A stretch of DNA of 64,000 nt, taken from assembly GCF_003334305.1 (NCBI RefSeq), contig NZ_QOWS01000014.1; one strand, 5' to 3'. Numbering within the stretch: the first letter of the stretch is position 1; every line of letters begins with the position of its first letter. Shown piece by piece: positions 12,927-48,798 of this stretch. The position numbers and the translations under genes were made by a program. Under the pieces are notes generated by a model, which was not told the origin of the DNA, ran no database searches, and worked only from the letters and a program-made list of their open reading frames with translations. This DNA is from Escherichia coli. Its GTDB lineage: Bacteria > Pseudomonadota > Gammaproteobacteria > Enterobacterales > Enterobacteriaceae.

Positions 12927-13072
12927 TCATCTGATTTACAAAACACGCTAATTCGTCTTCCATAAACCGTGACGATTAAGAATTATACATAATGCGCTGC
13001 ATTGAGGAATTCCCTGAATGTGACGCAAATCACTTCAAAGAGTGAGCAACAGTCAGTATCATCATGTGAGTT

Positions 13073-13107
13073 AAACCCTCGCCGCCTGACGGTGAGGGTT
13101 TTCTTTT
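13073..13107 (+). terminator. hairpin plus T-tract in the rna-rnk intergenic region
   Basis: aaccctcgccg...cggtgagggtt inverted repeat followed by ttcttttggg; coordinates approximate. Confidence 0.5.
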
Positions 13108-13155
13108 GGGTATGTTTATCTGCGACACTCGCAGTACCGACGACATGGAGTAAAA

Positions 13156-18104: not shown

Positions 18105-18475
18105 CTATACTTCCTCCGTGTTTTCGATGAGATGTAAGGTAACCAATTTTTGCCGATTCGGCTAATGCGTTTCCATTATCAAATCGATAAGTTTTACCTT
18201 ACAACCTTCGTAAGACAACTTTGTGAACTTTGCACCGCCAGCGGCGATAAAAAGTAAAATGGCCCCCTTTCCAGGTGACCGTGTAATCTGAACTACCCTT
18301 TGGTATCTTCAGCGCCTGCCTGCAGGCTGAGGTGTTGCCCTTACAAATGCAACAACGACATGGATTACAACACCCTCATAAACAAAGGGCAATCACCTGA
18401 TCTAAGCTCTTACCTATGACAGTGATAGGTTATGCCTTTTACTCGACTTTTGCACTGACTGAAAAGGACAAATTA
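18105..18475. promoter_or_regulatory. ahpC / dsbG divergent control region (expected OxyR-regulated ahpC promoter)
   Basis: 370-bp intergenic region between divergently transcribed ahpC and dsbG; the OxyR site is placed from knowledge of the K-12 locus, not from a motif found here. Confidence 0.4.
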
Positions 18476-46833: not shown

Positions 46834-46931
46834 GCCGGATGCGGCGTGAACGCCTTATCCGGCCTACAAAAATCTTGCCAATTCAATATATTGCAGGACC
46901 ATGTAGGCCTGATAAGCGTAGCGCATCAGGC
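46834..46931. repeat. BIME-like pair of inverted REP elements downstream of fepA
   Basis: gccggatgcggcgtgaacgccttatccggcctac (46834..46867) and inverted gtaggcctgataagcgtagcgcatcaggc (46893..46931). Confidence 0.8.
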
Positions 46932-47589: not shown

Positions 47590-47710
47590 TTGACAACATC
47601 TGGTACGATTCGCCCGCAGCCATCACTGACCGCGGGCGAAAGTGTAAAGCAGGTGCCTTACCACTCTGACCTGACAACCGGATATGCGGGGATTGCTCCC
47701 CGCACAACGG

Positions 47711-47863
47711 CTACTTCTTCGGTTCGTAAGCGAGAACAGCCTTAAACTCAATATTACGTTCCTTTACGGTGAACTCACACAGCGAGTCTCCGACCAGAAG
47801 CGTAAATCCCAGTACCGTCAAACACAGCACTATGACTGCCACAAGGGCATATTTCGTCAGCAT
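47711..47863 (-). CDS. hokE: Hok-family type I toxin (copy 1)
   Basis: 50-aa [50 protein letters not shown]; the frame is open a further 33 codons upstream to an ATG at 47962 (MKPQEIF...). Confidence 0.85.
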
Positions 47864-47939
47864 GTTTATATTGCCTCCATGCGAAGAAGGGACTACCATC
47901 CGAGTTGTTGAGGCTCGGAGTGGCAGCCCCAGGATTGAT

Positions 47940-48010
47940 AGAAATATCTCCTGGGGCTTCATCTTTCCAGACCTCAGAGTTAACCTGAAACCGGAAAGCT
48001 TCAGGCACCC
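47940..48010 (+). ncRNA. candidate Sok-like antisense RNA, copy 1 (position inferred)
   Basis: placed antisense to the mok-like start/RBS region by analogy with hok/sok architecture; stem-loop cctgaaaccggaaagcttcagg on this strand; no promoter verified. Confidence 0.25.
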
Positions 48011-48213
48011 GCCGTTATCTTACCCTTCCTCAACAAAATAGCTGTTTATTTATACAGTGAATCCTGTTTCGGACTTCTGTCGGCAAAACTCATCATTGCT
48101 CTTAAAACGAAATCGCCCGCAGCCATCACTGACCGCGGGCGAAAGTGTAAAGCAGGTGCCTTACCATCCTGACCTGACAACCGGATATGCGGGGATTGCT
48201 CCCCGCACAACGG

Positions 48214-48366
48214 CTACTTCTTCGGTTCGTAAGCGAGAACAACCTTAAACTCAATATTACGTTCCTTTACGGTGAACTCACACAGCGAATCCCCGACCAG
48301 AAGCGTAAATCCCAGCACCGTTAAACACAGCACTATGACTGCCGCAAGGGCATATTTCGTCAGCAT
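48214..48366 (-). CDS. Hok-family type I toxin (copy 2)
   Basis: 50-aa [50 protein letters not shown]; 2 aa substitutions relative to copy 1 (V8A, A42V). Confidence 0.85.
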
Positions 48367-48466
48367 GTTTATATTGCCTCCATGCGAAGAAGGGACTACC
48401 ATCCAAATTGTTCAGGTTTGGGTAGGTAGCCCCAGGGTTGATAGAAATATCGTCCTGGGGCTTCAT
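48278..48466 (-). CDS. mok-like overlapping leader ORF (copy 2), out of frame with hok
   Basis: 62-codon ORF starting MKPQDD at the position homologous to the copy-1 MKPQ start, ending inside hok in another frame, as in the canonical mok/hok arrangement. Confidence 0.3.
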
Positions 48467-48514
48467 CTTTCCAGACCTCAGAGTAAACCTGAAACCGGAA
48501 AGCTTCAGGCACCC
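48444..48514 (+). ncRNA. candidate Sok-like antisense RNA, copy 2 (position inferred)
   Basis: homologous position to the copy-1 candidate. Confidence 0.2.
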
Positions 48515-48798
48515 GCAGTTATCTTACCCTTGCTTAGCAAAATAGCTGTTTATTTATACAGTAAGTCCTGTTTCGGACTTCTCACTCCCCATTTGATCAA
48601 CTGAAGCTGAACCCGTTTTTTTCTGCATGCCTCAATCGTCAAAATTCTTCGCCACCAGCCAGCCGTGCCATAACTTGTCACATTGCAAAAGTAGCCAAAT
48701 TGCTTCAGTCACCATCACCAAAAAAAGAAACATTCCAGAACTTCCGCATCTCGCCCAGCCGCTCCGACTTCTATACTGAATAGAAAACGCCAACTTAA

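Follow-up and report, generated by a model that had tools for sequence, protein, structure and literature searches.

Antisense-target hairpins of two tandem hokE/sokE cassettes in Escherichia coli: compensatory change between the copies and the possibility of copy-specific control

Two hokE/sokE cassettes between entD and ybdK

The window (the whole 64,000-nt stretch of DNA analysed here) carries the E. coli chromosomal gene order fepA-entD-hokE-hokE-ybdK. Several complete genomes match it at 100% identity, and in these RefSeq annotates 'hokE (x2)'. The two hokE genes lie on the minus strand in direct repeats of ~470 nt with a period of 503/504 nt (Table 1), and both cassettes are intact in the sense that each has its open reading frame (ORF) and terminator as well as the leader, the Sok promoter and the 3' element for end pairing. 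Such a tandem arrangement of hokE is very common in E. coli. Leaders at least 99% identical to that of copy 1 are found in ~1,540, and leaders at least 99% identical to that of copy 2 in ~2,160, of ~5,400 matching E. coli records (counts that possibly include some partial matches).

The two HokE proteins differ by V8A and A42V (copy 2 relative to copy 1). HokE copy 1 matches the Pfam domain HOK_GEF (PF01848) over positions 1-42/42 with E = 2.5e-8, and NCBIfam Hok models match at E = 1e-9 to 1e-13, though short of their own curated cut-offs. The locus is hokE/sokE and belongs to the hok/sok family, an assignment that follows from the joint presence of the toxin domain, the leader model, the antisense gene, the target hairpin and the predicted pairing of the mRNA ends. 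Hok toxicity, repression by Sok and cleavage of the duplex by RNase III are family traits that may extend to the two window copies. (Overexpression of K-12 HokE is toxic, according to a preprint, bioRxiv 10.1101/2025.08.07.668861.)

The hok mRNA leaders match the Rfam model RF01794 at full length and above its gathering score of 59, and the consensus structure of the model includes the antisense-target hairpin that is the subject of the following section. Despite its family name ('sok antitoxin', CssrC), RF01794 covers the hok-sense strand, and it does so in both leaders; SokE is only part of the region, and on the opposite strand. This is one of two annotation traps at the locus. The other is a RefSeq antisense ORF over the leader, which is probably spurious.

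In the MFE folds of both 402-nt mRNAs the 5' segment GGGUGCCU pairs with the 3' AGGCACC, and the target hairpin is absent. Pairing between the 5' and 3' ends is in this way predicted for both messages, and by analogy AGGCACC may have an end-pairing role like that of R1 tac/fbi. In the full-length fold of copy 1 there is also perfect CCACUC/GAGUGG pairing of the region around a 3'-UTR dinucleotide with the 5' lower arm of the hairpin. Coupled change of this dinucleotide (47664-65, compared with 48167-68 in copy 2) and the 5' lower arm is only partial across strains, and the 3' partner of that arm differs in other genera.

In E. coli hokE no start codon was found after the GGGGC/GAGGC box, and no conserved mok start; the sole nearby AUG is that of the 3' hairpin arm, and it shares the hok frame (62 aa). 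The ORF opened by an AUG further upstream differs between the copies, being 83 aa long and in frame in copy 1, but 62 aa long and out of frame in copy 2. In some Klebsiella and Kluyvera homologues the 5' arm does contain an AUG, and R1 likewise has its AUG there. With no conserved mok start found in E. coli hokE, the manner in which Sok would block hok translation is less clear than in R1.

The RefSeq annotation of K-12 MG1655 places sokE (b4835), 60 nt long, opposite hokE, with its 5' end 44 nt upstream of the hokE AUG. K-12 and the window are separated by zero indels from the loop to the hokE AUG, and the Sok 5' ends of the window therefore fall at G47907 and G48410. (Sok and hok mRNA ends in this strain are predicted ends throughout, mapped by homology and annotation.) Both predicted Sok RNAs fold into an 11-nt free tail and a stem-loop, and have a GC-rich hairpin with a U-run. 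The Sok promoters were assigned by hand, on the basis of conservation and the K-12 annotation: in 53 of 53 homologues the -35 element TTGCCT (complement AGGCAA) is invariant, the -10 element is always TAnnAT, and the 17-nt spacer is gapless. A strict sigma-70 consensus scan of the region did not call the Sok promoter. On the plus strand, the hairpin arm at 47900-47904 (48403-48407 in copy 2) fills the gap between the Sok -10 element and +1, and is outside Sok. The initial annotation had expected this stretch to hold the target and the promoter of Sok; the position to which K-12 sokE maps and the invariance of the promoter support this expectation. At the level of sequence, then, each leader would be overlain by a cis-antisense RNA with its own promoter and terminator.

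Table 1. Features of the two hokE/sokE cassettes (positions are those of the window; hairpins, RNA ends and end-pairing elements are predicted)
Feature	Position	Strand	Basis and remarks
Tandem unit 1, entD-proximal	47609..48078	-	Complete hokE/sokE cassette; direct repeats, pairwise alignment
hok-1 mRNA terminator hairpin	47609..47640	-	Inverted repeat, fold
hok-1 mRNA 3' element AGGCACC	47652..47658	-	Full-length MFE fold; predicted partner of 5' GGUGCCU
hokE copy 1 CDS, 50 aa + stop	47711..47863	-	Translation; RefSeq WP_000956465.1 HokE
hok-1 mRNA 5' leader	47855..48010	-	RF01794, 86.5 bits, model positions 1-157
Sok-1 promoter	47871..47899	+	-35 TTGCCT 47871-47876, 17-nt spacer, -10 TACCAT 47894-47899
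Extended antisense-target hairpin, hok-1 mRNA	47889..47930	-	Local MFE -27.4 kcal/mol; Rfam consensus; covariation
hok-1 top stem-loop CCGAG-CCUCAACAA-CUCGG	47900-47918	-	Top of extended hairpin
SokE-1, 60 nt	47907..47966	+	K-12 sokE mapping, predicted fold; 11-nt 5' tail GUUGAGGCUCG, then stem-loop and U-run
Tandem unit 2, ybdK-proximal	48113..48582	-	Complete hokE/sokE cassette; direct repeats, pairwise alignment, RefSeq
hok-2 mRNA terminator hairpin, then T-run	48113..48142	-	Terminator scan
hok-2 mRNA 3' element AGGCACC	48155..48161	-	Full-length MFE fold
hokE copy 2 CDS, 50 aa + stop	48214..48366	-	Translation; RefSeq WP_000956456.1 HokE
hok-2 mRNA 5' leader	48358..48514	-	RF01794, 86.2 bits, model positions 1-157
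Sok-2 promoter	48374..48402	+	-35 TTGCCT 48374-48379, 17-nt spacer, -10 TACCAT 48397-48402
Extended antisense-target hairpin, hok-2 mRNA	48392..48433	-	Local MFE -19.3 kcal/mol; Rfam consensus; covariation
hok-2 top stem-loop CCAAA-CCUGAACAA-UUUGG	48403-48421	-	Top of extended hairpin
SokE-2, 61 nt	48410..48470	+	K-12 sokE mapping, predicted fold; 5' tail GUUCAGGUUUG

The target hairpin and its covariation

The two units differ at 26 of 470 shared alignment columns, and 10 of these 26 differences fall inside 33 columns (47902-47934). In a permutation scan, clustering of this degree has p ~1e-4 when the scanned interval is 33 nt and 3e-3 when it is 45 nt (a size picked after the data had been seen). 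The initial annotation had reported that substitutions between the copies are concentrated in a ~45-bp stretch of the leader, and had quoted a plus-strand stem-loop, CCGAGTTGTTGAGGCTCGG at 47900-47918 and CCAAATTGTTCAGGTTTGG at 48403-48421, in which both arms have changed while pairing and loop length are kept. The quoted strings are exact, the concentration is real, and the changes are compensatory as described. Two of the five stem pairs are changed on both sides, from G-C in copy 1 to A-U in copy 2 (47916/47902, equivalent to 48419/48405, and 47914/47904, equivalent to 48417/48407); the remaining three pairs are the same in both copies, as is the loop length of 9 nt, and a single base of the loop differs (47910 versus 48413). 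When 10 random substitutions were placed in a 50-nt stretch, all five pairs were kept and at least two of them were double-changed in 0.09-0.6% of trials, the range being set by transition bias. Hybrid stems built from an arm of copy 1 and an arm of copy 2 have a predicted stability of -0.3 kcal/mol or form no stem, compared with -4.9 and -0.9 for the native stems.

Folding in silico yields an extended hairpin in both leaders, with this stem at its top (local MFE values are listed in Table 1), and the RF01794 consensus structure holds the same long hairpin, with loop consensus CUaaACAA. Both window copies have a YUNR (U-turn) motif in the loop (CUCA and CUGA), as do 28 of 47 distinct homologues; it is absent in K-12 and in several common E. 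coli alleles.

A homologue scan with HokE, at one genome per species, gave 54 loci of 72-100% amino acid identity in Escherichia, Citrobacter, Klebsiella, Kluyvera, Pseudocitrobacter, Enterobacter, Phytobacter, Kosakonia, Trabulsiella and Yokenella. From these, 53 leaders (47 distinct) were aligned with plain MAFFT, all of them HokE-type, with hokA-D and plasmid loci outside the set, and the alignment was scored with the 16-pair hairpin of copy 1 (columns 40-81). Across these 53 leaders from ~10 genera 87.6% of cells are paired, as against 31-52% when the 3' partners are slid. Double-sided changes occur in 54 cells, compared with 16.6 +/- 3.5 in shuffles (0 of 500 shuffles were as high), and the covariation score is 0.277, compared with 0.159 for the control. 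The strongest covarying pair, 54-68 (GC:25/AU:18), is one that differs between the window copies. Pair 56-66, which also differs between them, is AU:29, CG:5 and GC:1, with 12 unpaired cells that come partly from misalignment of the loop. The counts for pairs 53-69 and 41-80 are CG:33/UA:9 and AU:36/GC:10, respectively. RNAalifold, run on the 53 leaders with no structure given, recovers the top stem and the outer stem.

The covariation across 53 leaders and the de novo RNAalifold prediction imply that the stem is a selected structure, which is what had been proposed from the two copies alone; the RF01794 consensus concurs, and pairing is kept in the wider alignment. The hairpin is the already known textbook antisense-target stem-loop of hok mRNA, previously supported by covariation. 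(Gultyaev, Franch and Gerdes reportedly established, in 1997, a covariation-backed structure for the hok family.)

Function of the hairpin and its alternatives

The stem-loop is very probably the top of the Sok-target hairpin of the minus-strand hokE toxin mRNA. On the model of R1, from which the refolding, the docking of tail on loop and the RNase III step are taken, 5'-3' end pairing would hold the full-length hok mRNA closed; trimming of the 3' end would let the leader refold, so that the hairpin forms and its loop (CCUCAACAA in copy 1, CCUGAACAA in copy 2) is exposed. SokE, ~60 nt long and read from the plus strand, would start inside this loop, at 47907 or 48410. Its 11-nt single-stranded 5' tail would dock on the loop and the 5' arm, and full duplex would follow. 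The SokE-hok duplex would in turn block Hok synthesis and mark the mRNA for RNase III.

The geometry of this arrangement bears on the compensatory changes. Because Sok is encoded opposite its target, changes in the loop or the 5' arm are mirrored in Sok and leave cognate pairing perfect. By contrast, the 3' arm is not in Sok, and must change separately if the mRNA hairpin is to be kept closed, which is the compensation seen between the copies. Pairing of Sok with hok, being automatic for a cis-antisense RNA, cannot explain the matching changes at 47902 and 47904; since these positions of the 3' arm are outside Sok, changes there can only serve the mRNA hairpin.

Two other explanations of the matching changes have to be weighed. 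Since either strand of a perfect stem is self-complementary, the plus-strand sequence can fold too, and the hairpin might accordingly belong to the Sok RNA, with compensation preserving the structure of Sok. The homologues pair only modestly better in the mRNA sense than in the antisense (87.6% versus 80.7%, with 90 G.U cells), and so modest a gap is not the main argument for the strand assignment. That argument is positional. The annotated start of K-12 sokE corresponds to 47907, inside the loop; the arm at 47900-47904 adjoins the invariant -10 box at 47894-47899, which is too close for a start upstream of the arm; and in the predicted Sok the hairpin region is the free 5' tail, as it is in R1 Sok. 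A Sok hairpin is for these reasons a most improbable source of the compensation, and the hairpin is confined to the hok mRNA strand.

On the other hand, the matching changes might have no function at all, and have arisen in decaying chromosomal relics, by chance or by recombination between pre-existing alleles. There is something to be said for this: chromosomal hok loci gave no post-segregational killing in earlier tests (as stated in bioRxiv 10.1101/2025.08.07.668861 with reference to Pedersen & Gerdes 1999), IS186 disrupts hokE in K-12, and hokE alleles have clearly been exchanged between positions. However, the probability of chance compensation is 0.001-0.006, the stem covaries across ~10 genera, and both window cassettes are intact from ORF to terminator. 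Recombination, for its part, explains how the copies came to differ and not why every allele keeps pairing. Changes devoid of function are thus very improbable, and the reading of the stem-loop as the top of the Sok target on hok mRNA is retained in what follows.

Divergence of the tandem copies and comparison with known systems

There is nothing new in the hairpin as such; the surrounding pattern is what could matter. It is chiefly at the point of first contact between Sok and its target that the tandem copies diverge. They have different bases at 7 of 19 Sok tail positions; 3 of these 7 fall in the first 11 nt, among them the N of the loop YUNR. Predicted duplexes of tail and target separate cognate from cross pairs. 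The tail of Sok-1 on hok-1 and that of Sok-2 on hok-2, both perfect over 19 nt, are predicted at -42.1 and -36.0 kcal/mol, respectively, whereas Sok-1 on hok-2 (7 mismatches over 19 nt) is predicted at -15.9 kcal/mol, and Sok-2 on hok-1 (12 Watson-Crick pairs, 4 G.U and 3 mismatches over 19 nt) at -20.4 kcal/mol.

These differences suggest that the cassettes may have diverged, or have been selected to diverge, at the Sok tail and its target, such that each Sok represses its own hok only and the tandem pair constitutes two independent toxin-antitoxin switches. Copy-specific control of this kind, which the initial annotation had also envisaged, is plausible in the light of the predicted duplexes, with the balance tipping slightly against it. 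The asymmetry of the cross duplexes is one consideration: Sok-2 on hok-1 keeps its G.U wobbles and has only 3 mismatches, so that one-way cross-repression is conceivable. Another is that the remaining ~40 nt of Sok are nearly identical between the copies.

The same question can be put to other tandem pairs, of which 12 were sampled (7 from E. coli, 3 from other Escherichia, one from Klebsiella spallanzanii and 1 from Enterobacter). In 12 of 12 the two copies have different loop or top-stem alleles. However, at least six loop alleles circulate in Escherichia, among them A (CCGAG-CCUCAACAA, window copy 1), B (CCAAA-CCUGAACAA, window copy 2), C (CCAAA-CCCGAACAA-UUUGG, K-12, with no U in the loop), D (CCAGACAA) and E (CCCAAACAA). 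With that many alleles, 12 unlike pairs out of 12 are expected by chance with a probability of ~11% (an estimate for equal allele frequencies), and the observation that tandem copies always differ is on its own not significant. Alleles B and D, moreover, are found at either position and at a second locus, which implies that exchange of cassettes is frequent; shuffling of cassettes fits this distribution as well as selection does.

Over the 12 pairs, the ~25-nt stretch that comprises the Sok tail and the target loop shows 0.18 differences per site, against 0.045 for the rest of the unit and 0.064 for hok synonymous sites, that is, ~3x the synonymous rate, and it exceeds the synonymous rate in 12 of 12 pairs (which share alleles and are not independent, while synonymous sites of a highly structured mRNA may be constrained and the ratio thereby inflated). 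For the window pair alone the figures are 9/26 in the target stretch and 4/37.7 at synonymous sites (Fisher p = 0.03). It is possible, if speculative, that the Sok tail and target loop are under diversifying selection, that tandem and dispersed copies are thereby mutually insulated, and that the 3' arm follows by compensation.

Were the divergence to insulate the copies, hok/sok would be a further natural example, next to Zor/Orz (Ibs/Sib is another), in which antisense specificity evolved after duplication, and its alleles would make up a collection of tail-loop pairs that are orthogonal in nature. Insulation of hokE copies in one genome through the hypervariable segment on which Sok docks is plausible. 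Nothing specific on cross-talk of Sok among hok paralogues turned up in a literature search, and none of the papers found compares Sok tails within hok islets. Such islets are described by Escalera-Maurer et al. (bioRxiv 10.1101/2025.08.07.668861): they account for 10% of hok genes and 13.5% of the chromosomal Escherichia ones, and consist of 2-6 copies <2 kb apart that come from local duplication. The preprint does not contain the words cognate, cross-talk or tandem, and no within-islet comparison of Sok or its target was found in the passages covered.

The closest relative is K-12 hokE/sokE (b4415/b4835), which shares with the window the entD-ybdK locus, a cassette that is ~95-97% identical, the position of the Sok start and the architecture of the hairpin. 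K-12 has a single copy, from which IS186 cuts off the 3' pairing element, and the window two intact ones (alleles A and B); K-12 itself carries a third hairpin allele (C, above), unlike either of these.

The hok/sok (parB) system of R1 provides the mechanistic model. In R1, end-pairing keeps the full-length hok mRNA closed, and 3' trimming leads to refolding and to formation of the antisense-binding stem-loop (PMC1635323). R1 Sok is 64 nt long and recognises, through an 11-nt single-stranded 5' tail, a loop found in the mRNA only once it has refolded (Faridani et al. 2006, PMC1635323), and the Sok-hok duplex is cleaved by RNase III (PMC1635323). R1 and the window have in common a Hok-family toxin, a leader matching RF01794, predicted pairing of the mRNA ends, and a cis-antisense RNA of ~60-64 nt whose 11-nt free 5' tail faces the hairpin loop of the refolded mRNA (in the window, by prediction). 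The window system differs in being chromosomal, in being tandemly duplicated, and in that no conserved mok start was found in its 5' arm.

For the relation between the two copies, the pertinent comparison is with zorO-orzO and zorP-orzP of E. coli O157:H7, another tandem duplication of type I cassettes, in which a few bases set the sRNAs apart at their 5' pairing ends. There, a 3-nt difference at the 5' end of the sRNA ('V1') lets OrzO repress zorO and stops OrzP from doing so (PMC3919570), which is a precedent from another duplicated type I system. The toxin family is unrelated, no covariation of a target hairpin is involved, and the sRNA is not fully cis-antisense, pairing instead over 18 nt in the 5' UTR. 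With these differences, Zor/Orz can be thought of as the experimentally proven version of the copy-specific control that is suggested for the hokE pair of the window.

Target loop, second hairpin and predicted closed form of the hok mRNA

Loops that serve as antisense targets are expected to carry a YUNR U-turn motif. Across the alignment of HokE-type leaders (loop columns 57-65), this motif is present in only 28 of the 47 distinct homologues, and it is missing in common E. coli hokE alleles: CCCGAACAA of K-12, as well as CCAGACAA and CCCAAACAA.

The Sok stem-loop differs between the two tandem copies at two places, a substitution (47934 in copy 1, 48437 in copy 2) and a 1-nt indel at 48452. 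The Sok strand accommodates both, as G•U or as a bulge, while a C•A mismatch results on the mRNA strand, which hints that the constraint on this second hairpin comes mainly from its role as terminator of Sok.

The copies also differ in a dinucleotide of the 3' UTR (47664-47665 vs 48167-48168; GAGUGG vs GGAUGG in the mRNA). When the copy 1 mRNA is folded at full length, the segment containing it is predicted to pair with CCACUC, the 5' lower arm of the target hairpin (the Sok-docking stem-loop of the leader). The dinucleotide may represent a change coupled to the closed form of the hok mRNA; across strains, it matches the hairpin allele just partly.

Reading frames and annotation of the leader

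Each leader contains an AUG (GAUGAAGCCCC), located at 47962 in copy 1 and at 48466 in copy 2. In copy 1 it opens an 83-aa ORF (47711-47962) that is in frame with hok; the corresponding mok-like ORF of copy 2 (62 aa, 48278-48466) overlaps hok out of frame because of one extra C, the insertion at 48452. Comparison of homologous leaders finds no conservation of this AUG beyond Escherichia, and the 5' arm of the target hairpin showed no canonical start codon for mok.

Rfam model RF01794 is named 'sok antitoxin', yet both of its matches in the window are to the sense strand of hok mRNA. SokE, as annotated in K-12, lies on the opposite strand and spans just the middle of the model. Pipelines annotating with RF01794 would assign 'sok' to the incorrect strand. 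The ORF of WP_009008364.1 is antisense to the copy 2 hokE leader and overlaps Sok. Many further strains have the equivalent ORF flagged as frameshifted, as pseudo or as incomplete, and WP_009008364.1 probably does not represent a real gene.

Rfam matches and the antisense ORF in the window
Feature	Position	Strand	Remark
RF01794, copy 1	47855-48010	minus	hok mRNA sense, ending at hok start codon
RF01794, copy 2	48358-48514	minus	hok mRNA sense, ending at hok start codon
WP_009008364.1	about 48335-48604 (48272-48604 in ORF listing)	plus	RefSeq 'hypothetical protein'
rnk leader	13002-13110	plus	Rfam, 124.9 bits
STnc70	18249-18342	minus	Rfam, 44.1 bits
ES036/CssrF	46869-46910	plus	Rfam, 40.5 bits; between fepA and entD

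hokE units at other sites and in K-12

Some E. coli carry an extra tandem hokE pair elsewhere on the chromosome, adjoining an SDR-family oxidoreductase gene (loci L061, NZ_CP146588, and L062, NZ_CP033762). The hairpin alleles of these pairs, D+B and B+C (B being that of copy 2, C that of K-12 and D another circulating type), are also found at the entD locus, which suggests that hokE cassettes move or recombine between chromosomal sites.

In E. coli K-12 (L056/L067) and O19:H7 730V1 (L066), IS186 lies ~20 nt past the hokE stop codon, and its insertion eliminates the 3' AGGCACC end-pairing element together with the terminator. Both hokE copies of the window retain these elements and therefore look intact, in comparison with a crippled K-12 copy.
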